Shown here piece after piece: positions 2,387-52,270 of a stretch of DNA of 64,000 bases. Below the pieces are notes generated by a model. That model was not told where the DNA came from. It searched no databases and saw nothing but the letters and a program-made list of their open reading frames with translations. The position numbers and the translations under genes are program-made. Position 1 is the stretch's first letter, and each line of letters opens with the position of its first letter. The DNA is taken from the NCBI RefSeq assembly GCF_055900595.2, contig NZ_CM148325.1, one strand, 5' to 3'.

Positions 2387-3244
2387 GTGAAAGCTGACAA
2401 CCCTTTTGATCTTTTACTTCCTGCAGCAATGGCCAAAGTGGCCGAAGAGGCAGGTGTCTATAAAGCAACGAAACATCCGCTTAAGACTTTCTATCTGGCG
2501 ATTACCGCCGGTGTTTTCATCTCAATCGCATTCGTCTTCTATATCACAGCAACCACTGGCACAGGAACAATGCCCTTCGGCATGGCAAAACTGGTTGGCG
2601 GCATTTGCTTCTCTCTGGGGCTGATTCTTTGTGTTGTCTGCGGAGCCGATCTCTTTACTTCCACAGTGTTGATTGTTGTTGCTAAGGCGAGTGGGCGCAT
2701 CACCTGGGGTCAGTTGGCGAAAAACTGGCTAAATGTCTATTTTGGCAACCTGGTCGGCGCACTGCTGTTTGTACTTTTAATGTGGCTTTCCGGCGAGTAT
2801 ATGACCGCGAATGGTCAATGGGGACTAAACGTCCTACAAACCGCCGACCACAAAGTGCACCATACTTTTATTGAGGCCGTCTGCCTTGGTATCCTGGCAA
2901 ACCTGATGGTATGTCTGGCAGTATGGATGAGTTATTCTGGCCGCAGCCTGATGGATAAAGCGTTCATTATGGTGCTGCCGGTCGCGATGTTTGTTGCCAG
3001 CGGTTTTGAGCACAGTATCGCAAACATGTTTATGATCCCGATGGGTATTGTAATCCGCGACTTCGCATCTCCGGAATTCTGGACCGCTGTCGGTTCTGCA
3101 CCGGAAAATTTTTCTCACCTGACCGTGATGAACTTCATCACTGATAACCTGATTCCGGTTACGATCGGTAATATTATCGGCGGTGGTTTGTTGGTTGGGT
3201 TGACATACTGGGTCATTTACCTGCGTGAAAACGATCACCATTAA
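2387..3244 (+). CDS. focA: formate channel FocA
   Basis: 285-aa product from GTG start (MKADNPFDLL...), polytopic membrane protein; the 398-aa six-frame ORF is an upstream extension through the promoter region. Confidence 0.9.
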   Translation: MKADNPFDLLLPAAMAKVAEEAGVYKATKHPLKTFYLAITAGVFISIAFVFYITATTGTGTMPFGMAKLVGGICFSLGLILCVVCGADLFTSTVLIVVAKASGRITWGQLAKNWLNVYFGNLVGALLFVLLMWLSGEYMTANGQWGLNVLQTADHKVHHTFIEAVCLGILANLMVCLAVWMSYSGRSLMDKAFIMVLPVAMFVASGFEHSIANMFMIPMGIVIRDFASPEFWTAVGSAPENFSHLTVMNFITDNLIPVTIGNIIGGGLLVGLTYWVIYLRENDHH

Positions 3245-3298
3245 TGGTTGTCGAAGTACGCAGTAAATAAAAAATCCACTTAAGAAGGTAGGTGTTAC

Positions 3299-5581
3299 AT
3301 GTCCGAGCTTAATGAAAAGTTAGCCACAGCCTGGGAAGGTTTTACCAAAGGTGACTGGCAGAATGAAGTAAACGTCCGTGACTTCATTCAGAAAAACTAC
3401 ACTCCGTACGAGGGTGACGAGTCCTTCCTGGCTGGCGCTACTGAAGCGACCACCACCCTGTGGGACAAAGTAATGGAAGGCGTTAAACTGGAAAACCGCA
3501 CTCACGCGCCAGTTGACTTTGACACCGCTGTTGCTTCCACCATCACCTCTCACGACGCTGGCTACATCAACAAAGCGTTGGAAAAAGTTGTTGGTCTGCA
3601 GACTGAAGCTCCGCTGAAACGTGCTCTTATCCCGTTCGGTGGTATCAAAATGATCGAAGGTTCCTGCAAAGCGTACAACCGCGAACTGGACCCGATGATC
3701 AAAAAAATCTTCACTGAATACCGTAAAACTCACAACCAGGGCGTGTTCGACGTTTACACTCCGGACATCCTGCGTTGCCGTAAATCCGGTGTTCTGACCG
3801 GTCTGCCAGATGCTTATGGCCGTGGTCGTATCATCGGTGACTACCGTCGCGTTGCGCTGTACGGTATCGACTACCTGATGAAAGACAAATACGCTCAGTT
3901 CACCTCTCTGCAGGCTGATCTGGAAAACGGCGTAAACCTGGAACAGACTATCCGTCTGCGCGAAGAAATCGCTGAACAGCACCGCGCTCTGGGTCAGATG
4001 AAAGAAATGGCTGCGAAATACGGCTACGACATCTCTGGTCCGGCTACCAACGCTCAGGAAGCAATCCAGTGGACTTACTTCGGCTACCTGGCTGCTGTTA
4101 AGTCTCAGAACGGTGCTGCAATGTCCTTCGGTCGTACCTCCACCTTCCTGGATGTGTACATCGAACGTGACCTGAAAGCTGGCAAGATCACCGAACAAGA
4201 AGCGCAGGAAATGGTTGACCACCTGGTCATGAAACTGCGTATGGTTCGCTTCCTGCGTACTCCGGAATACGATGAACTGTTCTCTGGCGACCCGATCTGG
4301 GCAACCGAATCTATCGGTGGTATGGGCCTCGACGGTCGTACCCTGGTTACCAAAAACAGCTTCCGTTTCCTGAACACCCTGTACACCATGGGTCCGTCTC
4401 CGGAACCGAACATGACCATTCTGTGGTCTGAAAAACTGCCGCTGAACTTCAAGAAATTCGCTGCTAAAGTGTCCATCGATACCTCTTCTCTGCAGTATGA
4501 GAACGATGACCTGATGCGTCCGGACTTCAACAACGATGACTACGCTATCGCTTGCTGCGTAAGCCCGATGATCGTTGGTAAACAAATGCAGTTCTTCGGT
4601 GCGCGTGCAAACCTGGCAAAAACCATGCTGTACGCAATCAACGGCGGTGTTGACGAAAAACTGAAAATGCAGGTTGGTCCGAAATCTGAACCGATCAAAG
4701 GCGACGTCCTGAACTACGATGAAGTGATGGAGCGCATGGATCACTTCATGGACTGGCTGGCTAAACAGTACATCACCGCACTGAACATCATCCACTACAT
4801 GCACGACAAGTACAGCTACGAAGCCTCTCTGATGGCGCTGCACGACCGTGACGTTATCCGCACCATGGCGTGTGGTATCGCTGGTCTGTCCGTTGCTGCT
4901 GACTCCCTGTCTGCAATCAAATATGCGAAAGTTAAACCGATTCGTGACGAAGACGGTCTGGCTATCGACTTCGAAATCGAAGGCGAATACCCGCAGTTTG
5001 GTAACAACGATCCGCGTGTAGATGACCTGGCTGTTGACCTGGTAGAACGTTTCATGAAGAAAATTCAGAAACTGCACACCTACCGTGACGCAATCCCGAC
5101 TCAGTCTGTTCTGACCATCACTTCTAACGTTGTGTATGGTAAGAAAACTGGTAACACCCCAGACGGTCGTCGTGCTGGCGCGCCGTTCGGACCGGGTGCT
5201 AACCCGATGCACGGTCGTGACCAGAAAGGTGCTGTAGCATCTCTGACTTCCGTTGCTAAACTGCCGTTTGCTTACGCTAAAGATGGTATCTCCTACACCT
5301 TCTCTATCGTTCCGAACGCACTGGGTAAAGACGACGAAGTTCGTAAGACCAACCTGGCTGGTCTGATGGATGGTTACTTCCACCACGAAGCATCCATCGA
5401 AGGTGGTCAGCACCTGAACGTTAACGTGATGAACCGTGAAATGCTGCTCGACGCGATGGAAAACCCGGAAAAATATCCGCAGCTGACCATCCGTGTATCT
5501 GGCTACGCAGTACGTTTCAACTCGCTGACTAAAGAACAGCAGCAGGACGTTATTACTCGTACCTTCACTCAATCTATGTAA
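3299..5581 (+). CDS. pflB: pyruvate formate-lyase (formate C-acetyltransferase 1)
   Basis: 760-aa ORF, recognisable PflB sequence including the C-terminal glycyl-radical motif region (RVSGYAV). Confidence 0.95.
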
Positions 5582-5620
5582 TTAGTTTTGACTGAAATCG
5601 TACAGTAAAAAGCGTACAAT

Positions 5621-5650
5621 AAAGGCTCCACGAAAGTGGGGCCTTTTTTA
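5621..5650 (+). terminator. rho-independent terminator after pflB
   Basis: GGCTCCAC-GAAA-GTGGGGCC hairpin followed by TTTTTT. Confidence 0.6.
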
Positions 5651-5772
5651 GCACGAGAGCCTTTTTTGTCAGCTATCTATACTTTAAGGTGACTGCCAAA
5701 ACAGACTCGACGTAGCCTTCGAGCTGCGCACCAACACGGCCTCAGATGGGCCACATCTGGAGAAACACCGCA

Positions 5773-20275: not shown

Positions 20276-20758
20276 TTATCGGGAAAAACCGATCGTAATG
20301 GCAGCCATCATCTTTTCAGCGAAAGAGAGAGATTCACGATGACTGATATTCAGAGACATACAGGCTTTGTTGTACGCCACATTTTCCATGCATTCCAGGA
20401 CAGGAGAGTCATGCATCTCAAGCTCTGGAAGGCGTGCCAGCAGAGCTTCCGTACTGAGGAGGGCGCTTTTGGTAATCAACTCATTGTAGCGATGGGCATG
20501 CTCACTCGCCGCCTGCGCACGTTGCCCGAAACGACATATGAAATTACAGGCTCCGAGAACCACCACCACTGCCCCAAGCACCCAGCCGAAATGCCAGCCG
20601 GCTACGATGAACGCACCCGCCGCAAGGATCAAAATGTTGATGATCGCATCAAGGCGACGATTGAATACCGCCGCGATGCGCTCCAGCCAGTAGCTGTACC
20701 AGAGACGGAACATGACCTCATCCCGTTCTCTCGATTTTTTACGTTGGTTGTTTTGCAT
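20276..20758 (-). CDS. membrane protein encoded antisense to the early operon (moron candidate)
   Basis: 160 aa, RBS GAGGGAT, two hydrophobic helices (IINILILAAGAFIVAGWHFGWVLGAVVVVLGA) plus soluble C-terminal domain. Confidence 0.5.
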   Translation of the reverse strand: MQNNQRKKSRERDEVMFRLWYSYWLERIAAVFNRRLDAIINILILAAGAFIVAGWHFGWVLGAVVVVLGACNFICRFGQRAQAASEHAHRYNELITKSALLSTEALLARLPELEMHDSPVLECMENVAYNKACMSLNISHRESLSFAEKMMAAITIGFSR

Positions 20759-22579: not shown

Positions 22580-25090
22580 ATGAGCCATCACCACACGCAC
22601 CTGGCGTACCCGTGGAACGCCCCGCTGCCGGTTATTGATCCTGAGACATTCGGCAGAGCATTACCGCAGAAGCCAACCGCATTACAACGGGCAATCCGTG
22701 ACTACCTCACCGAAGACATTCGCACTGAGGCCCGGCTGGATGAAGAAACCGTGGCCTTCCTGACAACCACGGACAAAGGTAAGCAAATTAATTCACACCT
22801 TCACCGGGACGAAGAGCGGCAGATAAGGCTGGATAAGCTGGCACGACACAGACGCGAAAATCCGCCAACGGCGGTATCGGAGGCGATAGCCGAACTTCGC
22901 ACCCTGCCCTCGTTTCTTGCCAGTGTGTTGATCCGTGATCTGGCACGACTGAACCGGAAACAGCAAAGTGCCCGCAGTGAAGGTGTAAAAAACAACAGCG
23001 CATACGTGGCCGATAATTTCGTTCGCCGTGGACTGCGTGCGCGCCTGAAACGTATTGAAAGGGTTAACGACCGCTTTGCAACGCCGGCATTCAAAACCAC
23101 CGTCGTGCGCCATCGCCTTGAAGAACTGCTCACACTGCCGCAACTCACCCGTGACGAAATCCAGCGCATCGCCACACTGACAGCCCAGGCATTCGCCGCA
23201 GAATTTGAACGCATATGTGATGAAGTTCTTGAACGGACAGGCAAGGATAATGACAGCCCGGTTATCTGGCTGCTGGCCTACCAGAAGGTGGCACGCACAG
23301 CCTTAATTCTGGGCATGGTCCCGCCATACTGGCCGGAACTCGAAATCAGGCACAACCGACGCACACCGCCGGACCCTGAACGGGTTCCGGGTGCGGTACT
23401 GCGCATCACCTGCGCGACCTGGTGGAACAACCAGTTACGCCACGTCGCCGATCTCTGGCGGGAGGAGTTACTGCGCGCCGCCGGCAGAGTGTCACGTAAA
23501 CAATCCCCCTATATCAGCCATGAGTCACTACTGGAGTTCCGCGAGAAGCGCCAGCGCACCTGTGACTTTCTCAAAAGCTGGGATATTGAAAACGAAGACG
23601 GCGAGCGCCTGAGTCTGGAGGACGTGTACTGGGCTGGCCTGGGTAATCCACGCAACCGCCGCAATGAAATGATGGTCTGCGTCAGAGGGATGGAGATGGT
23701 GGCCGAATTACGGGCTGACGTCGCATTCTTCATCACAGTAACCACCCCTTCCCGCTTTCACAGCGTGAACGAGAACGGCAGCCTGAACCCGAAATACAAC
23801 GGTGCCACAGTACGAGATGCCAGTGATTATCTGGTTTACGACTTCTTCGCAGCCGTAAGAAAAAAAATAAAAAAAGAGGGGCTGGGCTGGTACGGCGTGC
23901 GAACCGCTGAGCCACACCATGACGGCACGCCACACTGGCATATGCTGGTATTCACTTCCCCGGAGAACGCAGAGCGCATCATCGAAATTATGCGCGAAGC
24001 AGCAATTAAATCAGATCGCCACGAACTGGGGGACGATATTTCACCGCGCTTTAAATGCGAGAAGATAGACCCGGAAAAAGGCACACCGGCAAGCTATATC
24101 GCAACCTATATCGGTAAGAACCTGGACGCCAGCGCTTTCCACAACAATGATCCGAAAACCGGAAAACCTTACGTTGATGAGGAATCCGGGAAAACCATGG
24201 CGGAAACCGTGGAGAACGCCATTGCCTGGGCAAGCCTTCACCGCATCCGTCAGTTCCAGTTTTTCGGCATTCCGCCCCGCCAGGTATGGCGTGAACTCCG
24301 CCGCCTTGCAAGCCAGATGGAGCGCAACCCGGCATCACCGAAGCACCTCGATCATGACGATATTGACGCCATTATGGCTGCCGCAGATGTGGGATGTTTT
24401 GCCACCTACATCATGAAACAGGGTGGTGTGCTCATTCCGCGCAACCAGTATCTGGTCCGCACCGCATACGAAACCGCAGACGAAGCCAACGACTACGGTG
24501 AACTCCCTCAACGTATCTACGGAATCTGCGCCCCGTCGCTCGGAGAGCGGTACACCATATGCACCCATCCGGACGAGTGGAAACTGGTTAAAAAAGAAAC
24601 AATACCAGACAACCGCACGGGCGAGGGTTTTGACCTTCAGGGCGACCCCGTCGCCCCTTGGACTCGTGGCAATAACTGTCCCCGGGATGAAAAAACAGAC
24701 AATCACGGACCAGAAAACAGGCAGGACCCCGGACGACTGACGCTTCCCGAAGAGAACCTGGAAAGCTGGCTGAATACGTTAAGCAGGGGCGATCGGAGAA
24801 AACTGCGTAATCAGATTAAAAATCAGCCGTCGGGCGCAAAAACCGGACAAAACGACACCACACCGGCATCTGACACCCCTGTAAGGGTGGGGATTGTCGT
24901 GCCTGCGGATACCGCGACGGACACGCAAATCGCCCGCGAACTTGATGCGCTGGGTGTGCAGTTGCCTGACGCGGCCATCATCTCCGTGCGTAACGGTGCC
25001 CGTGTGCGTCTGGATAACGGGGGAACAGCGTACTGGGATGAGTCAGCCCGTCACATCATCACAGAGCAGCCAGTGGAGGCGGGAGCATGA
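22580..25090 (+). CDS. A: P2 gpA-family rolling-circle replication initiation protein
   Basis: 836 aa; HWHMLVF histidine motif and catalytic Tyr region (YIATYIGKN) typical of P2 A. Confidence 0.85.
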   Translation: MSHHHTHLAYPWNAPLPVIDPETFGRALPQKPTALQRAIRDYLTEDIRTEARLDEETVAFLTTTDKGKQINSHLHRDEERQIRLDKLARHRRENPPTAVSEAIAELRTLPSFLASVLIRDLARLNRKQQSARSEGVKNNSAYVADNFVRRGLRARLKRIERVNDRFATPAFKTTVVRHRLEELLTLPQLTRDEIQRIATLTAQAFAAEFERICDEVLERTGKDNDSPVIWLLAYQKVARTALILGMVPPYWPELEIRHNRRTPPDPERVPGAVLRITCATWWNNQLRHVADLWREELLRAAGRVSRKQSPYISHESLLEFREKRQRTCDFLKSWDIENEDGERLSLEDVYWAGLGNPRNRRNEMMVCVRGMEMVAELRADVAFFITVTTPSRFHSVNENGSLNPKYNGATVRDASDYLVYDFFAAVRKKIKKEGLGWYGVRTAEPHHDGTPHWHMLVFTSPENAERIIEIMREAAIKSDRHELGDDISPRFKCEKIDPEKGTPASYIATYIGKNLDASAFHNNDPKTGKPYVDEESGKTMAETVENAIAWASLHRIRQFQFFGIPPRQVWRELRRLASQMERNPASPKHLDHDDIDAIMAAADVGCFATYIMKQGGVLIPRNQYLVRTAYETADEANDYGELPQRIYGICAPSLGERYTICTHPDEWKLVKKETIPDNRTGEGFDLQGDPVAPWTRGNNCPRDEKTDNHGPENRQDPGRLTLPEENLESWLNTLSRGDRRKLRNQIKNQPSGAKTGQNDTTPASDTPVRVGIVVPADTATDTQIARELDALGVQLPDAAIISVRNGARVRLDNGGTAYWDESARHIITEQPVEAGA

Positions 25091-25518
25091 CGCGATTTTG
25101 CTGCACCATGCAGCGCCCACAGTTTGAGGCCATCATGCGCCAGCGTATGCCGGTGCTGACACTGTTCAGGCCTGCCACAAGGCCACAACCGGGCGACGAG
25201 CTGGAAATCACGATAGTCAGCCCCGATCGCACCACGGAGACCACCATCGCCGACATACTCAACAGGCGGCCGGGCAGCGAGAGCCATAGCTGGACTGTCG
25301 TCATTCGTCCGCGCCGTTCGCCGGAGGAACCGGAGCCGTGCACGCCTGCCGGGAAAATCATGCAGAGATATCACGAAGAGCGGACACGCAGGCACAACGG
25401 CGGACTGGCCAGAACACTGAACACAGTCAATCACAAGGCCGCGCTGGCGCGAATGGTCTTTTCACCACAACGCAATTCATTCGCCAGACCAGCACAGAAC
25501 GGGAGGAAACAACAGTGA
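25087..25518 (+). CDS. hypothetical Arg-rich protein, translationally coupled to A
   Basis: 143 aa; ATGA overlap with A stop; RBS GGAGG. Confidence 0.45.
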   Translation: MTRFCCTMQRPQFEAIMRQRMPVLTLFRPATRPQPGDELEITIVSPDRTTETTIADILNRRPGSESHSWTVVIRPRRSPEEPEPCTPAGKIMQRYHEERTRRHNGGLARTLNTVNHKAALARMVFSPQRNSFARPAQNGRKQQ

Positions 25519-25709
25519 GCAGAATATTACTTTTTCTGCTGTTTTTCGCGCCATTCGCACAATCAGCCACGCCGAACTGCGTAGCGAAAAAGAGCAACAC
25601 CGTTGTCATTGTCCAGTGTGATGACGGCACGGTAACAATCACCGACTCGAGCAAAGGAAGCGTCATTGTCTGCCGTAAAGAGAAACCCTGTCAGCGAACC
25701 GAACTTTGA
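25515..25709 (+). CDS. small secreted Cys-containing protein (64 aa)
   Basis: GTG start overlapping upstream stop (GTGA), RBS GGGAGGA; N-terminal signal peptide ILLFLLFFAPFAQSA; 4 Cys. Confidence 0.45.
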   Translation: MSRILLFLLFFAPFAQSATPNCVAKKSNTVVIVQCDDGTVTITDSSKGSVIVCRKEKPCQRTEL

Positions 25710-25720
25710 AGGAAAAATAT

Positions 25721-26035
25721 ATGAACAGGAAACAGAAGCAGGAACTGAAAGGCTTCTTACGTAAAGAAATTGCCAGGCTGGAAGATGTGGAATCTCAGTC
25801 ATCAGATATTCCATTCGGAATGGATATCAACGACGCCTGTATGCTCCAGGTATACCGCATAGCTCAGGCTGCACTACAGGCAAAACCGTCAGATGGACTG
25901 GTTAGAGCAGTACGTTTCTATGAACTGGTAAAGCGTGAGAATCCGCCAGTCGAAACCGGAGCATGGCAAGACGCTGTTGACTGGGTGCTCAAAGAGGCTT
26001 GTCAGGTTGTAAACACTGGCATCAAAGGAGACTGA
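25721..26035 (+). CDS. hypothetical protein (104 aa)
   Basis: co-directional, 12 nt after upstream stop. Confidence 0.5.
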   Translation: MNRKQKQELKGFLRKEIARLEDVESQSSDIPFGMDINDACMLQVYRIAQAALQAKPSDGLVRAVRFYELVKRENPPVETGAWQDAVDWVLKEACQVVNTGIKGD

Positions 26036-26036
26036 T

Positions 26037-26246
26037 ATGGCTATTGCCGCAAGTTACACCATGCATCTCTATTGTGATTGTCGCCAGTGTACAAATGGTA
26101 AATATCAAACGCCAGACTTCGGTGAATATATCGGTACGTCATGGACTGGCTGTGCAAAAGAGGCGCGTAAGGATGGCTGGCGAATAAGCAAAGACAAAAC
26201 TCGTGCTTTTGCGCCCGGGCATAAAGTTTTGAGGATTAACAAATGA
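26037..26246 (+). CDS. small Cys-rich (putative zinc-binding) protein
   Basis: 69 aa with CDCRQC...C; starts 2 nt after upstream stop. Confidence 0.5.
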   Translation: MAIAASYTMHLYCDCRQCTNGKYQTPDFGEYIGTSWTGCAKEARKDGWRISKDKTRAFAPGHKVLRINK

Positions 26247-26644
26247 CCACTATAACCAAAGAGCGACTACTGACAATCAGGCAGTGGCGCGAAACATACG
26301 GACCTGGTAGCAACGTTGTACTGCCAGCCGAAGAAGCGGAAAAACTGGCACGGATTGCTTTGGCATCGCTGGAAGCAAAACCAATAGGTGCTTTCCACAT
26401 TGCAGAACAGCAGGTCGATGGCACAAGTGACTACATCAAGGATGGGGAGTACCGCTTGCTGACATCTGAAGAACAAAAGATAGCCCAACTTTTAGGCGAT
26501 GCATGGAACCTGTATTTTACATTGCCAGTTGAGCATCCAATGGGTAGAGATGAATTTTGCCGGGCAATTCATCATTGCCAAAATATGGTGTTGGCACGCC
26601 CTGCCATCAGGGCGCTGGCCAGTAAGGGGCAAGGCTATAAATAG
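26243..26644 (+). CDS. hypothetical protein (133 aa)
   Basis: overlaps upstream stop by 4 nt; followed by terminator. Confidence 0.5.
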   Translation: MTTITKERLLTIRQWRETYGPGSNVVLPAEEAEKLARIALASLEAKPIGAFHIAEQQVDGTSDYIKDGEYRLLTSEEQKIAQLLGDAWNLYFTLPVEHPMGRDEFCRAIHHCQNMVLARPAIRALASKGQGYK

Positions 26645-26650
26645 ATGAGC

Positions 26651-26679
26651 AAAACGCCCTCCTCCAGGGCGTTTATTTC
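26651..26679 (+). terminator. rho-independent terminator ending the early/cargo operon
   Basis: AACGCCCT-CCTCC-AGGGCGTT hairpin followed by TATTT. Confidence 0.6.
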
Positions 26680-26681
26680 AA

Positions 26682-26708
26682 TGCACAATAGTGCACAAAT
26701 TTGCACAA
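26682..26708. promoter_or_regulatory. three TGCACAA direct repeats at exact 10-bp phasing
   Basis: copies at 26682, 26692, 26702. Confidence 0.5.
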
Positions 26709-26856
26709 TTTTTTTGAACGACTTTTTGCCCTTCCGGCCCGTGTGGCGTCTGGATCCGTCGGGGATCCGTGCGTGCACGAAAAAAGGCCTTTTTCTGCGC
26801 GCAGGTGACGGGGGAACAGCCCGCGTTTCAGGGGGTAAATAGCATTCCCTGAACGA

Positions 26857-26874
26857 TGTTGCAGCGACACAACA
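26857..26874. promoter_or_regulatory. TGT-N12-ACA dyad (candidate Ogr-type late activator site) upstream of the 27137 gene
   Basis: TGTTGCAGCGACACAACA; a bare TGT-N12-ACA match is expected by chance several times per 64 kb, so support is weak. Confidence 0.3.
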
Positions 26875-27136
26875 GAATGGCTGTATTTCTCACGCTGAGC
26901 GTAAAAAAGACGTAAAAGCTTGATTTGATGGGGGTGAAAGATAAGGCCGTCAAAATCGCACTGAGGCAGCGAGAATATGTCGTCAGAGTTGCGGGGTTGC
27001 GTAAGCATCCGCCCGGCGATGATGGCTACAAGGTTGGAGATGTTGTGAAATTATCTGAAGGAATAACCAGCTTGCAGGAGAACCCGGGCAAAGTCAGAAT
27101 AGCGGCAGGCATCAACTCAAAAGAGGATAATGTCAT

Positions 27137-27638
27137 GAGCCACTTTAATGATTTATGCCAGATCAATCGTGAAGCTGAAGAAAAACGCGCTGAGGCAGCT
27201 CAAATTTTGCGGGATGAAGCGGCAAGGCTGATTGATTTCTATGAAGAATGGCTGGGGCTTCCATCCATGTACTGGGAAGACGATGATGGCGACCTGCACC
27301 GCTACGTGGAGACAGGCTTGCCATGTAAGACAGCGGCGGATTTTAGTCCTCTTTCAGTCCACAATATCGCATCTGCACCAGACAATATTTTCCGCATGGC
27401 CGTGCGAACCTGGGTTAAGTCATCTGACAGCAGCTACCCGGTAAGCGTGGTTATTGCACTTGAATTATATTCAGTAGATGCGGAACGGGTGTCTCTGAGA
27501 GTCCGGGTGGAAGACGATATTTCTGTTCGCGTATTTATCAATAAACCCAGCGAAGAAGCCTGGGGCGATGTTGTTATGCACATGAAAAAGCACATCGCTA
27601 ATCACCTGAAAAAGCGAGCGCCATCAGCACTTCGTTAA
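27137..27638 (+). CDS. hypothetical cargo protein (167 aa; possibly 237 aa from 26925)
   Basis: strong RBS AAAGAGGA before MSHFNDLCQ; occupies the P2 tin/old position next to the portal gene. Confidence 0.5.
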
Positions 27639-27654
27639 GCAGAGCTGGAGAGTC

Positions 27655-27677
27655 GGGGCATAAATTTTTTATGCCCC
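27655..27677. terminator. hairpin GGGGCATAAATTTTTTATGCCCC between cargo gene and portal gene
   Basis: perfect inverted repeat between convergent genes. Confidence 0.5.
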
Positions 27678-27704
27678 GGCGAAGCAGCAGACAAGCGAAG
27701 CGCG

Positions 27705-28760
27705 TCAGGATATGGGCTGGGTGTCTAACAGTGCGTAAGGGTTAAAACGGATCACCTCTTCGCCCAGCCAGTCGTTGACGTGTTTCATTGCTTCCATGAC
27801 GGGCATCAGTTCGTTAATGGCAAACACACGGGCTGCCTTCTCCACATCCCCGAATGACCCCTTCTCACCCGGCATGGCCCCCATCAGCTGCGGCGGTACA
27901 CGGTGCACGGACAGCACATCATCACGCGATGCAGCCTTGACGTTCATGAACTCATCCTTTGCGGTGATTTGCTGAAACGGCAAAATCTGTACGCCATCCT
28001 TACCACCTCCCGCCGCGTGGATGAGCAGATTTTTAAACGCCCCGCCACCACGCGCGCTTTGCAGTGTTTCCCGCAGTTTTTCCATGCTTTCACGGTCAAC
28101 CTGCGCCGCACCGATGTAGACAATACAGCCCGCGTGTGAGCCGTTATCGTAGTAGAGCTTGCGGAAGATATCGGCGGAATGTGACAGGCTGGCAGACAGC
28201 AGGCCGCCCAGGTAATCCGGCATCCCGTAAATCTCCTGGTTGATATCAGGATTCATCAGGTGGCATATCGTCCCCTCACGAAAGCGGTACTCTTCCTGTC
28301 CTTCCTGTATATACCACCATGATTTCATATCGCTGCCACGTCGCATGTATTTCGCCAGCGCCCGGCGCAGGGCCAGCGGTTCGCCAAGCATGTTGCGCCG
28401 CAGCTCAAGACAGGCATTACCGAACACAAACCAGTCCATCGCCACCCCGGCGAACTCCTGGCGGGACAGCAGAGGATGTGGAATATAGCAGCCCAGCAGC
28501 ACATTACGTTTGAAGCTGAGCGCCGACTGGTGCCAGGACGTCTGGCGGGCAGCCCGTGCCAGTCCGTACCAGTCAACGGGCGTTTCAAACCACCGCCCGT
28601 TGTCGGCGCAGTACATGCTGTCCAGCAGGTCGGCCCCTGACAGCCGGTAAGGTCCTTCAAACGTGAAGGCACTCAGTGTCGGGTCGCTTCGCAGGGAATC
28701 CGCAAGGCTGCCCTGCGCTGCGCGGGCGTTCGTACGTCGTTGTTTATTTTTTCTGCTCAT
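27705..28760 (-). CDS. Q: portal protein (P2 gpQ family)
   Basis: 351 aa, size and position match P2 Q upstream of terminase P. Confidence 0.8.
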   Translation of the reverse strand: MSRKNKQRRTNARAAQGSLADSLRSDPTLSAFTFEGPYRLSGADLLDSMYCADNGRWFETPVDWYGLARAARQTSWHQSALSFKRNVLLGCYIPHPLLSRQEFAGVAMDWFVFGNACLELRRNMLGEPLALRRALAKYMRRGSDMKSWWYIQEGQEEYRFREGTICHLMNPDINQEIYGMPDYLGGLLSASLSHSADIFRKLYYDNGSHAGCIVYIGAAQVDRESMEKLRETLQSARGGGAFKNLLIHAAGGGKDGVQILPFQQITAKDEFMNVKAASRDDVLSVHRVPPQLMGAMPGEKGSFGDVEKAARVFAINELMPVMEAMKHVNDWLGEEVIRFNPYALLDTQPIS

Positions 28761-30573: not shown

Positions 30574-30597
30574 TGTTGTCGGCATTCGCTTACAACA
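30574..30597. promoter_or_regulatory. dyad TGTTGT-N12-ACAACA (inner TGT-N12-ACA) between divergent P and O
   Basis: perfect 6-bp inverted repeat centred about 55 bp from inferred starts of both P and O. Confidence 0.55.
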
Positions 30598-51445: not shown

Positions 51446-51621
51446 TTTTTTTTGCGCCTGCCATCGAGGCGCCTTCCCTGGCGCACACAAAGCAGCCCTG
51501 ATTTTCCATGAAAACTTCAGGGTTGAGCCAAAAGCACAAAGACAGTAGATTAACCACGGGTGCCTTCCACCTGACAACAGGAAGGGTGTCCAGTATCAAT
51601 GACAGACAACTCACATTGCTG
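51446..51621 (+). ncRNA. structured module S2
   Basis: paralogue of S1. Confidence 0.35.
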
Positions 51622-52102: not shown

Positions 52103-52270
52103 GGCGGTTACCATCGCCTCACCTTCCTGGTTCACATGAAGCAACCCTGATTTTCCATGAAAACTTCAGGGTTGAGACAAAAGCACAAAGACAGTAGATT
52201 AACCACGGGTACCTTCCACCTGACAACAGGAAGGCTGTCCAGTATCAATGACAGACAACTCACATTGCTG
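52103..52270 (+). ncRNA. structured module S3
   Basis: paralogue of S1/S2. Confidence 0.35.

Follow-up and report, generated by a model that had tools for sequence, protein, structure and literature searches.

The interval between the replication endonuclease gene A and the portal gene Q in the 64,000-nucleotide stretch of DNA analyzed here (the window) is an already-catalogued variable region of a P2-like E. coli prophage, adjoining its DNA-packaging site. We read it, with a probability of roughly 0.6, as the cos-proximal junction of a P88-related P2-like prophage in which four functionally separate units meet: ORF1 tied to A, ORF2–5 within the early operon, the cos region with its phased repeats, and the self-contained ORF6. 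A preliminary description had correctly recognized the cos-proximal A-to-portal hotspot, which was described by Rousset et al. 2022 (PMC9122126), whose Table S5A lists this exact arrangement as six untested 'hypothetical' proteins; its view of the genes as a single cargo cluster does not hold under this division. Anatomy, linkage patterns, folds and conservation are directly supported, and expression timing and every biochemical role are what we infer.

Features of the A-to-portal interval (positions within the window).
Feature	Position	Strand	Description
Replication endonuclease gene A, 836 aa	22580..25090	+	ORF list; RefSeq name 'replication endonuclease'; starts the coupled gene string
ORF1, 143 aa	25087..25518	+	ASCH/PUA-like beta domain and long basic helix (structure model)
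ORF2, 64 aa, GTG start	25515..25709	+	Small exported protein (predicted), 4 Cys in mature part; phrog_20764, E 4e-10
ORF3, 104 aa	25721..26035	+	Small early-operon protein; phrog_26213, phrog_660
ORF4, 69 aa	26037..26246	+	Cys-rich (C13, C15, C18, C39), widespread small prophage protein; phrog_926, E 6.6e-37
ORF5, 133 aa	26243..26644	+	Mosaic protein; PHROG matches split between residues 1-76 and 72-133
Intrinsic terminator hairpin	26652..26674	+	9-bp perfect stem AAACGCCCT/AGGGCGTTT, then TTATTTC; ends the early operon
Conserved non-coding block, read as cos	26682..26830		Three phased TGCACAA, fourth TGCAC, predicted cohesive end
TGTTG-N8-CAACA dyad (TGT-N12-ACA pattern)	26857..26874		Present; significance doubtful
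Predicted sigma-70 promoter of ORF6	27072..27100	+	-35 TTGCAG 27072-27077, 17-nt spacer, -10 CAGAAT 27095-27100
ORF6, 167 aa, phrog_5091	27135..27638	+	Self-contained gene between cos and portal gene
Two-way terminator hairpin	27652..27680		13-bp stem; serves ORF6 as well as the P-Q (terminase-portal) operon that converges on it
Portal gene Q	27705..28760	-	ORF list and RefSeq annotation; right-hand hotspot boundary

The prophage gene order runs int, repressor, Cox, early genes, A and then ORF1 onward. All six reading frames are present in the ORF list and each matched a PHROG family (E 4e-10 to 6e-82), indicating that they are real genes, and about 20 genomes carry the locus with 100% identity. 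The sizes given earlier for ORF1–5 (143, 64, 104, 69 and 133 residues) were correct; stop/start overlaps or short gaps join these genes, with a Shine–Dalgarno sequence of the GGAGG/AGGAG type 6–7 nt upstream of every start. As in the P2 hotspot, which holds orf91, tin and old, the slot lies between A and Q beside cos. P2 tin and old are encoded on the minus strand with their own mapped mRNA start near cos, whereas the cargo left of cos in the window runs in the direction of A with no consensus-like promoter. Between cos and the portal gene P2 has only ~160 bp of non-coding DNA, whereas the window has a second variable slot with ORF6. Sequence comparison revealed no relation of the six proteins to Tin or Old, as had been held before; a single weak gapped match of ORF5 to Tin was judged to be chance.

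The stop of A, a gene whose relatives carry Pfam Phage_GPA, overlaps the start of ORF1 as ATGA at 25087. ORF1 always overlaps the stop of this A-gene type, while the downstream cargo varies. In the structure model, residues 1–75 form the beta domain and residues 87–124 the basic helix, a fold that was confident in only one of five AF2 models. P2 Orf91 (DUF3850, ASCH-like) is likewise the first gene after A, overlaps the A stop and has an ASCH-like fold, but ORF1 differs by its additional long basic C-terminal helix and tail and by the lack of detectable sequence similarity to Orf91 (hhalign probability 0.2%); it also has no Pfam match. Since its position equals that of orf91, ORF1 belongs to the replication module, travelling with A rather than with the cargo. 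Coupled to A, the ASCH-fold protein would have a nucleic acid or a modified nucleotide as its ligand while replication takes place.

ORF2–5 are co-directional with A and translationally coupled. ORF2 overlaps ORF1 as GTGA at 25515 and is preceded by the Shine–Dalgarno sequence GGGAGG; the ORF3 ATG follows 12 nt past the ORF2 stop, that of ORF4 only 1 nt past the ORF3 stop, and ORF5 overlaps ORF4 as ATGA at 26243. The earlier reading of ORF2 as secreted and Cys-containing fits its signal-peptide-like N-terminus and four cysteines, and the protein would act in the periplasm. In L014, too, a homologue (67% identical) comes second behind A, and virulent Erwinia jumbo phages have distant relatives. 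At this locus phage P88 encodes a 112-aa protein with 93% identity to ORF3, which is disrupted by an IS21-family element in strain GF60. ORF4 contains, as noted previously, a CDCRQC motif and one further cysteine; its relatives form 47 clusters in Enterobacteriaceae, none of them named. The N-terminal ~49-aa module of ORF5 recurs in lambdoid and P1/P7 phage genes that carry the annotation DUF551 or EaA and appears in >200 phage records, and the C-terminal module (phrog_13916) is found in Pseudomonas phages by tblastn. PGAP called only the first 135 nt of ORF5, as a partial gene; the frame is nonetheless open.

ORF4 and the first third of ORF5 share ~94% DNA identity (segment 93.6%) with the exo-to-int region of Stx phages, and ORF4 with the start of ORF5 is 93–96% identical across Stx and other lambdoid phages. 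There, homologues of ORF4 and of the ORF5 N-terminal module are likewise coupled through ATGA, with exo and a TraR-like gene upstream of them and int downstream; a close ORF4 homologue in Stx2 phage 86, between exo (upstream) and int (downstream), is ATGA-coupled to an ORF5-type gene. Like the genes of the exo–xis/exo–int region, ORF3–5 are small, numerous, mosaic and placed in an early lytic operon; their carrier here, however, is a P2-like phage, and they follow its A gene. No similarity to lambda ea22, ea8.5, orf61, orf63 or orf60a was found, and Pfam Ead_Ea22 gave no match. Early lytic expression is reported in the literature on the exo–xis region (PMC8614690).

The promoter scan found no consensus-like plus-strand promoter between A and the ORF5 terminator, and the terminator that had been proposed downstream of ORF5 was confirmed (−15.2 kcal/mol, z −4.4) and is kept in P88. 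ORF2–5 would form the tail of an early operon starting at the Cox-side promoter, which should be repressed in the lysogen. Lacking a consensus-like promoter of their own, they would stay off while the prophage is repressed, and their products would appear only upon infection or induction. A weak internal promoter is conceivable for them, since the consensus scan also overlooked the one predicted for ORF6.

The early-operon terminator would be followed by cos. TGCACAA occurs at 26682, 26692 and 26702 in exact 10 bp steps (three of the five occurrences in the 64 kb), and a fourth motif, TGCAC, lies at 26774. The resulting spacing of 0/10/20/92 compares with those of P2 (0/12/22/94) and P4 (0/13/23/95), where the fourth motif stands 29 nt before the cohesive end. 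The P2/P4 cos site (Ziermann and Calendar 1990, as cited in PMC9122126) is likewise located between right-end cargo and Q, with three phased TGCAY motifs, a fourth ~72 bp on and the cohesive end ~25 nt later; the motif here is TGCAC(AA) instead of TGCAT. The predicted 19-nt cohesive end, GGTGACGGGGGAACAGCCC at 26804–26822, is identical to that of P2 at 13 of 19 positions, and the cut site is placed by this identity and the motif geometry, not by virion ends. Global alignment of the block with P2 cos was uninformative, and the flanks do not align globally. P88-like phages share the block, as do relatives from Salmonella, Edwardsiella and E. coli with differing flanks; in Edwardsiella all four motifs are jointly changed to TGAAC. 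Of 5426 E. coli genomes, 1139 contain it without annotation. The phased repeats and the fourth TGCAC would provide the recognition layout for a cut at ~26804–26822.

ORF6 matches the full phrog_5091 profile (E 3.4e-52), a family adjoining the portal gene in P2-like prophages. Its model comprises an N-terminal helix, an antiparallel sheet and a C-terminal helix, with weak structural matches, and its dN/dS of 0.15 indicates purifying selection. IS insertions in ORF3 and ORF6 of otherwise identical prophages show that both are dispensable for lysogeny. The separate promoter proposed for ORF6 agrees with a predicted one; the gene starts at 27135 and not at 27137, from where the frame meets 16 stops. 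The standard scan missed this promoter because it scores only 7/12. Its pattern, TTGCnn-N17-nAnAAT, is kept at a distance of 61–68 nt before the start codon in the window, L011, L013, L014 and L018, and L021 has it as well; it stands out in DNA otherwise 47% identical. The Shine–Dalgarno sequence is GAGGA (27123–27127), and the two-way hairpin (−28.9 kcal/mol on the plus and −22.8 on the minus strand; z −6.4 and −4.3) occupies the same position as P2 tQ. In phages 569R5 and PhiR44_2 a 174-aa portal-adjacent protein also matches the full phrog_5091 profile (E 1.4e-67), but is only 26% identical to ORF6, and the cassette there lies across the conserved hairpin; the 569R5 gene is preceded by the same promoter motif. 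With sigma-70 promoter, Shine–Dalgarno sequence and terminator, ORF6 would be an autonomous cassette, and the variable slot that it fills, the second of the region, lies between cos and portal.

The TGCACAA repeats and the TGT-N12-ACA dyad had been described as preceding ORF6 and might be operators or activator sites, for example of an Ogr-type late promoter. The dyad does fit the half-site pattern of P2 late promoters, a second copy lies between P and O (30577–30594), and TGCACA-16-CACAAT scores 8/12 as a promoter-like site. We nevertheless consider such a role very unlikely. The repeats are indeed present with 10 bp phasing, but ~430–450 bp upstream of ORF6, and they copy the P2/P4 cos motif spacing; the dyad lies ~260–280 bp upstream, and its pattern is not enriched in the window (10 found, 16.7 expected). 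Both are kept in P88-type phages without ORF6, so neither is simply an ORF6 control region. Of five ORF6 homologues checked, four (Salmonella, L014, L018, L022) have no such dyad upstream; what is conserved instead is the proximal TTGCnn-N17-nAnAAT, and the other dyad-pattern match, upstream of the L011 homologue at −428, is a different sequence. On this motif evidence, the TGCACAA repeats are part of the cos region and not ORF6 regulatory sites. That the small ORFs are decaying, functionless remnants is most improbable: ORF5 is mosaic and flagged as an incomplete, partial pseudogene by PGAP, and IS insertions are tolerated, but all frames are open with strong Shine–Dalgarno sites and tight coupling, PHROG matches are strong, the locus is identical in the ~20 genomes, Stx phages keep the coupling of ORF4 to ORF5 and ORF6 is under purifying selection.

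More weight is due to the idea that the coupled ORF1–5 unit, ORF6 or both form an undescribed exclusion or defence system expressed in the lysogen and functionally replacing tin and old, although we hold it to be improbable. The locus is a documented P2 defence hotspot adjoining cos, many hotspot systems are proteins without known domains, one validated P2-hotspot system consists of three genes with no predicted domain (PMC9122126), and ORF6 has its own promoter and terminator. The Pfam and PADLOC searches called for earlier, however, gave no match for any of the six proteins, nor did NCBIfam or PDB sequences, and PADLOC found no defence-related signal. Structure prediction yielded folds for ORF1 and ORF6, with no enzymatic or effector-like domain in either, and the other four proteins have just 64–133 residues. 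ORF1 is linked to A and is not cargo; ORF2–5, unlike tin and old, sit in a repressible early operon without a consensus-like promoter; homologues of ORF3–5 occur in lambdoid early-left operons; and virulent phages carry relatives of ORF2 and of the ORF5 C-terminal module. It is somewhat less improbable, if still unlikely, that ORF6 serves the phage and not the lysogen, either as an anti-defence or host-takeover protein, which, as the product of the first gene beside the left cohesive end, could be expressed from a constitutive promoter as soon as the DNA has entered, or as an accessory packaging or head-assembly factor. Its absence from P88, P2 and 186 argues that it is not needed for packaging, and it is IS-interrupted in one prophage. 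The 569R5 portal is 82% identical while the allele beside it is 26% identical, which points to the cassette swapping typical of accessory cargo, and the weak structural matches likewise speak against a phage-serving function.

Returning to the reading as four separate units, ORF2–5 resemble the genes filling the exo-to-int region of lambdoid phages and would act as early-lytic modulators of the lysis–lysogeny balance, host takeover or counter-defence. Rousset et al. (PMC9122126) found defence for about one-third of the cloned P4-hotspot systems and for three of eight from the P2 hotspot, and given such base rates a defence role for some of the six genes is possible. The preliminary view of the genes as exclusion or defence candidates is not favoured for the A-linked ORF1 or the early-operon ORF2–5. 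Only ORF6 has the organization of a gene for lysogenic conversion or exclusion; the prophage probably expresses it, with its product acting as a non-enzymatic binding protein, and it alone is a plausible candidate for phage exclusion.

The P2-like prophage in the window sits beside rraA and reads, in order, integrase, HTH repressor, Cox-family gene, rightward early genes, replication endonuclease gene A, the A-to-Q interval, the portal gene (Q) and the large terminase gene. Based on the ORF list and inspection of the sequence, the six ORFs of the A-to-Q interval are present with the sizes and tight coupling attributed to them in the preliminary description. A and ORF1, like ORF4 and ORF5, overlap as ATGA, ORF1 and ORF2 overlap as GTGA, ORF3 follows after 12 nt and ORF4 after 1 nt, and every ORF start has a strong Shine–Dalgarno sequence. 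The start of ORF6 needed correction, as position 27137 is out of frame with the ATG at 27135. The terminator hairpin downstream of ORF5 was borne out, as was the TGCACAA triplet, which makes up three of the five copies in the 64 kb. All six proteins match PHROG families of unknown function. The sequence features of the interval are real, but they form four units, which the proposed single cargo cluster merges into one.

Features of the A-to-Q interval and related sites in the window
Feature	Position	Strand	Remarks
phrog_6315 gene	20276-20758	-	160 aa; antisense within the rightward early operon
Replication endonuclease A	22580-25090	+	rightward early direction
ORF1	25087-25518	+	143 aa
ORF2	25515-25709	+	64 aa
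ORF3	25721-26035	+	104 aa
ORF4	26037-26246	+	69 aa
ORF5	26243-26644	+	133 aa, open frame; 135-nt 'partial' pseudogene in RefSeq/PGAP
Promoter-like site	26276-26249	-	TTGTCA-16-TATAGT (10/12), antisense into ORF4
Terminator hairpin	26652-26674		downstream of ORF5
TGCACAA repeats	26682, 26692, 26702
TGCAC motifs	26682, 26692, 26702, 26774
Core of conserved block	~26682-26830
Predicted cohesive end	26804-26822		GGTGACGGGGGAACAGCCC
Conserved segment right of predicted cos end	26830-27060		~230 bp
Dyad	26857-26874		TGTTG-N8-CAACA
RefSeq/PGAP model of ORF6	26928-27638	+	236 aa, in-frame fusion to part of the cos-flanking block
Predicted ORF6 promoter	27072-27077, 27095-27100		TTGCAG and CAGAAT, then GAGGA and ATG
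ORF6	27135-27638	+	167 aa
Two-way hairpin	27652-27680		strong; between ORF6 and the portal gene
Portal gene	27705-28760		converging on the A-to-Q interval, together with the large terminase gene
TGTCGGCATTCGCTTACA	30577-30594		between divergent P and O genes
TGTCCAGTATCAATGACA, two copies	51587-51604, 52236-52253		identical 18-mers, 649 bp apart

The assignment of this locus to the P2 anti-phage hotspot holds, as the cos-proximal stretch between A and Q in P2-like prophages has been described as such (Rousset et al. 2022, PMC9122126). At least a handful of entries in Table S5A of that paper, NZ_CP033635 among them, show precisely this gene set (WP_000196517 + WP_001080487 + ... + WP_000086827) with all six proteins labelled 'hypothetical', and none of the eight cloned P2 systems in its text match it. 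NZ_CP033635 is one genome identical to the window across the interval; about 20 complete E. coli genomes are 100% identical there, and P88-type phages (Xuanwuvirus, Peduoviridae) as well as many lambdoid/Stx phages match parts of it. Both the hotspot and the six-gene arrangement are already in the literature.

The profile searches suggested in the preliminary description (Pfam, PADLOC) returned no defence family or other meaningful match for any of the six proteins. Likewise, NCBIfam and PDB sequence searches gave nothing meaningful, five proteins had no match in PADLOC-DB v2, where ORF3 reached only chance level (E 0.016, 12 bits), and an Rfam scan of 24900-27900 gave no match. The earlier statement that no ORF is tin or old was confirmed. 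P2 Old is an OLD-family nuclease of about 586 aa with ATPase and TOPRIM nuclease domains; the six ORFs, all of 167 aa or less, yielded no significant BLASTP match to it and no Pfam/PADLOC domains. BLASTP against P2 Tin (NP_046797) returned only ORF5, at 25 bits and 27% identity with 17% gaps, in an alignment crossing the junction of ORF5's two mosaic modules. P2 Tin belongs to phrog_9821, which none of the six ORFs matches, and we take ORF5 as a chance match rather than a Tin relative, given a weak, gapped alignment over a mosaic junction and the different PHROGs. Another gene of the same prophage, the 160-aa member of phrog_6315, a family of unknown function, has a layout like an independently expressed moron, and its PADLOC search gave nothing significant.

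Homologues of ORF1 (65–99% identity) were found in E. coli only, and every one overlaps the end of an A gene whose product has ~840 aa. What follows downstream varies: one set of loci has an Ead_Ea22 protein, another has MarR plus a toxin-antitoxin-like pair. In the related prophage L015, the A protein and the ORF1 homologue (P0016) are 72% and 73% identical to those of the window, respectively, the portal only 29%. The constant overlap, the changing downstream genes and these identities indicate that ORF1 travels with A and not with cargo or packaging genes, so that it is probably part of the replication module, leaving its candidacy for defence unsupported. The A stop of P2 is overlapped by orf91, which codes for a DUF3850 protein and is labelled DUF3850/ASCH in the table of Rousset et al. 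(PMC9122126); in the window ORF1 takes that position. The predicted model of ORF1 shows a small β-barrel ASCH fold (ASCH/PUA-like superfamily). No ASCH or DUF3850 profile matched ORF1 in Pfam up to E 10, and hhalign against P2 Orf91 gave a probability of 0.2%, with no detectable sequence similarity. Judged by the model, ORF1 is the counterpart of P2 orf91 in position and predicted fold, without similarity in sequence. It showed no relation to the 153-aa A-overlapping protein of the related prophage L014.

Like A, ORF2–5 read rightward, and they are coupled to A. A standard and a relaxed sigma-70 scan found no + strand promoter upstream of ORF2, ORF3 or ORF4, and the first terminator downstream of A is the one after ORF5. 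Together, these observations suggest that ORF2–5 should share the repressible early promoter of A and be transcribed with it. In P2, by contrast, tin/old are read from the opposite strand, and their mRNA start has been mapped beside cos; L031, another E. coli P2-like prophage, also has opposite-strand genes here. For ORF1–5, which are coupled to A, no consensus-like promoter of the tin/old type was found in the sequence. The strong promoter-like site on the minus strand in ORF4 may reflect chance or an antisense transcript.

Close homologues of ORF4 and of the N-terminal ~49 aa of ORF5 occur in Stx2 phage 86, with 93.6% identical segment DNA and the same ATGA coupling; exo and a TraR-like gene precede them there, and antB and int follow. 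This location is the extended exo-xis region, and more than 190 lambdoid records match the segment. Expression of exo-xis region genes at the earliest lytic stages and an influence on the lysis-lysogeny decision have been reported (PMC8614690). No Pfam Ead_Ea22 domain was found in the lambdoid-like ORFs, BLASTP revealed no similarity to lambda Ea22, Orf60a, Orf61 or Orf63, and ORF5 and ORF3 showed no relation to lambda Ea22 or to L014's Ead_Ea22 protein. The two halves of the mosaic ORF5 have different relatives: genes annotated DUF551 or EaA, as well as P1/P7, share the N-terminal module, and the C-terminal module (phrog_13916) is found in Pseudomonas phages, some around 200 kb. The P88 protein at the equivalent locus is 93% identical to ORF3. 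ORF2 has four Cys and is predicted to be exported; a homologue (67% identity) comes second behind A in a different lineage, and virulent Erwinia jumbo phages hold distant relatives. These relatives in virulent phages and lambdoid early operons would fit a lytic-cycle role of ORF2–5 better than prophage-expressed immunity, and their defence candidacy, as promoter-less lambdoid-type early genes, is weak. The short RefSeq/PGAP annotation of ORF5 is likely an artefact.

The preliminary description had tied the TGCACAA repeats to ORF6, a link that did not survive comparison. The non-coding block begins exactly at the repeats and is conserved in P88-type phages with and without ORF6, and its core is also kept in Salmonella, Edwardsiella and other E. 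coli relatives with unrelated flanks. Of 5426 complete E. coli genomes, 1139 (about 21%) have the block, without annotation and mostly at 90–95% identity. In P2, the equivalent position between old and Q holds cos. Counted from the start of the 19-nt cohesive end, both P2 and P4 have TGCAT motifs at -123/-124, -111, -101 and -29. The TGCAC motifs of the window are spaced 0/10/20/92 compared with 0/12/22/94 in this geometry, which, projected on the window, places the cohesive end at about 26803-26804. The predicted end is identical to the P2 end GGCGAGGCGGGGAAAGCAC at 13/19 positions, and the position of the 19-nt 5' cohesive end is derived from this identity and the motif spacing. In an Edwardsiella tarda relative (L011 5483-6000) all four motifs read TGAAC (or TGCAA), with the spacing and the GGTGACGGGGGA core retained; such a joint change is expected of sites read by one protein and looks like co-variation of protein-binding sites. 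The core lies ~190 bp from the portal stop in L031, compared with 187 bp in P2. Located between right-end cargo and Q and conserved independently of its flanks, as is a P2-type cos, the block leads us to conclude that the TGCACAA repeats are in all probability part of the packaging signal, with the exact cut site predicted.

Aligning the intergenic block globally to the cos junction of P2 was uninformative, and the start of the linear record LR595891 was rejected as a cos end, the end and start of the record being contiguous. A scan of species-representative genomes for the cos core, seeking P4-like satellites with the same cos, gave only 2 matches. The segment right of the predicted cos end is 88–94% conserved across P88-type phages and contains a 42-codon frame with mostly non-synonymous differences and no Rfam match; candidate roles are a cos flank, a small RNA or a peptide.

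The dyad ahead of ORF6 is present as described, but TGT-N12-ACA is not above chance in the window (10 against 16.7 expected). Ogr/Delta-dependent late promoters carry TGT-N12-ACA some 55 bp ahead of the start site, and the dyad was considered as such a promoter of ORF6. It lies about 35 bp right of the predicted cohesive end and is retained in P88-type phages lacking ORF6. No equivalent was found upstream of five ORF6 homologues: four lineages are without any TGT-N12-ACA match, and the sole other match, in L011 at -428, differs in sequence. With the dyad not conserved alongside ORF6 and retained where ORF6 is missing, a role in controlling that gene is not credible. Elsewhere in the window, TGTCGGCATTCGCTTACA lies between P and O, where P2 carries Ogr-dependent late promoters, and the two copies of TGTCCAGTATCAATGACA suggest a local duplication.

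ORF6 aligns over residues 1–167 with positions 1–163 of 164 of the phrog_5091 profile (E 3.4e-52), and this profile, like the homologues of 164–169 aa, supports the 167-aa product. The 236-aa model was rejected: its upstream 69 codons come from the block, which relatives without ORF6 also have, and in relatives the extra segment carries mostly non-synonymous differences and an in-frame stop. This annotation, too, is likely a RefSeq/PGAP artefact. By sequence the family is small (7 representatives among 1.84 billion proteins). All homologues with sufficient flanking sequence are in P2-like prophages (of E. coli, Salmonella, Edwardsiella and others), with the conserved block on one side and the portal gene on the other, and phage 569R5 carries a portal-adjacent 174-aa phrog_5091 member 26% identical to ORF6. 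A TTGCnn-N17-nAnAAT motif precedes the ATG by 61–68 nt in the window and 4/5 other loci scanned, in DNA otherwise only 47% identical; it is also visible in L021 and recurs upstream of the 569R5 member. With this promoter-like motif, the Shine–Dalgarno sequence and the hairpin, ORF6 is organised like a moron and appears to form a cassette of its own in a second slot, between cos and the portal gene.

The dN/dS of ORF6 against the Salmonella homologue is 0.15, indicating purifying selection, and its divergence about equals that of portal and terminase in several lineages; yet ORF6 is missing in P88 and its place is taken by a distant allele in 569R5, with portals 82–83% identical to that of the window. 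In prophages otherwise identical, IS21-family elements split ORF6 (ISEc12; L029, E. coli NRZ14408) and ORF3 (ISSso4-like; L030, E. coli GF60), so both genes are dispensable for keeping the prophage. The A-to-cos slot of prophages with ORF6 homologues (L012, L018/L019, L022) holds toxin-antitoxin-like pairs (Gp49 + HTH_37; TumE + HVO_A0114; HicA + HicB) or ParM/StbA partition genes, and these differing contents indicate that the slots on the two sides of cos vary independently.

For ORF6, a defence role is at most a candidate reading. Tin poisons T-even replication. We consider it doubtful, at roughly one chance in five, that phrog_5091 (ORF6 plus ~35 structural relatives from Enterobacterales, Pseudomonas and other groups) forms a new single-gene, non-enzymatic, prophage-expressed family with its own hotspot between cos and portal of P2-like phages, moving with its own conserved promoter and, Tin-like, blocking competing phages or neutralising host defence by binding a target protein. 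In L031 (E. coli AMSCJX04), three minus-strand hypothetical genes (253, 114 and 469 aa; 3222-5701) lie between A and cos; this set, in tin/old orientation, is a better-organised candidate defence cassette than that of the window.

The outcome is mainly a clean-up that reveals no new mechanism. It provides a cos prediction for the P88-type lineage, whose block is carried by about one in five complete E. coli genomes, flags the two likely annotation artefacts, and leaves phrog_5091 as a defined candidate within a layered hotspot anatomy. The A-to-Q 'hotspot', usually taken as one defence locus, consists of several layers: an A-linked ASCH-fold gene, promoter-less early genes exchanged with lambdoid phages, cos with terminase-type repeats, and a separate second cargo slot between cos and the portal gene. 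Genes that lie in a repressible early operon make poor candidates for immunity expressed by the lysogen, and for defence mining of hotspots self-contained cassettes such as ORF6 are the better candidates.
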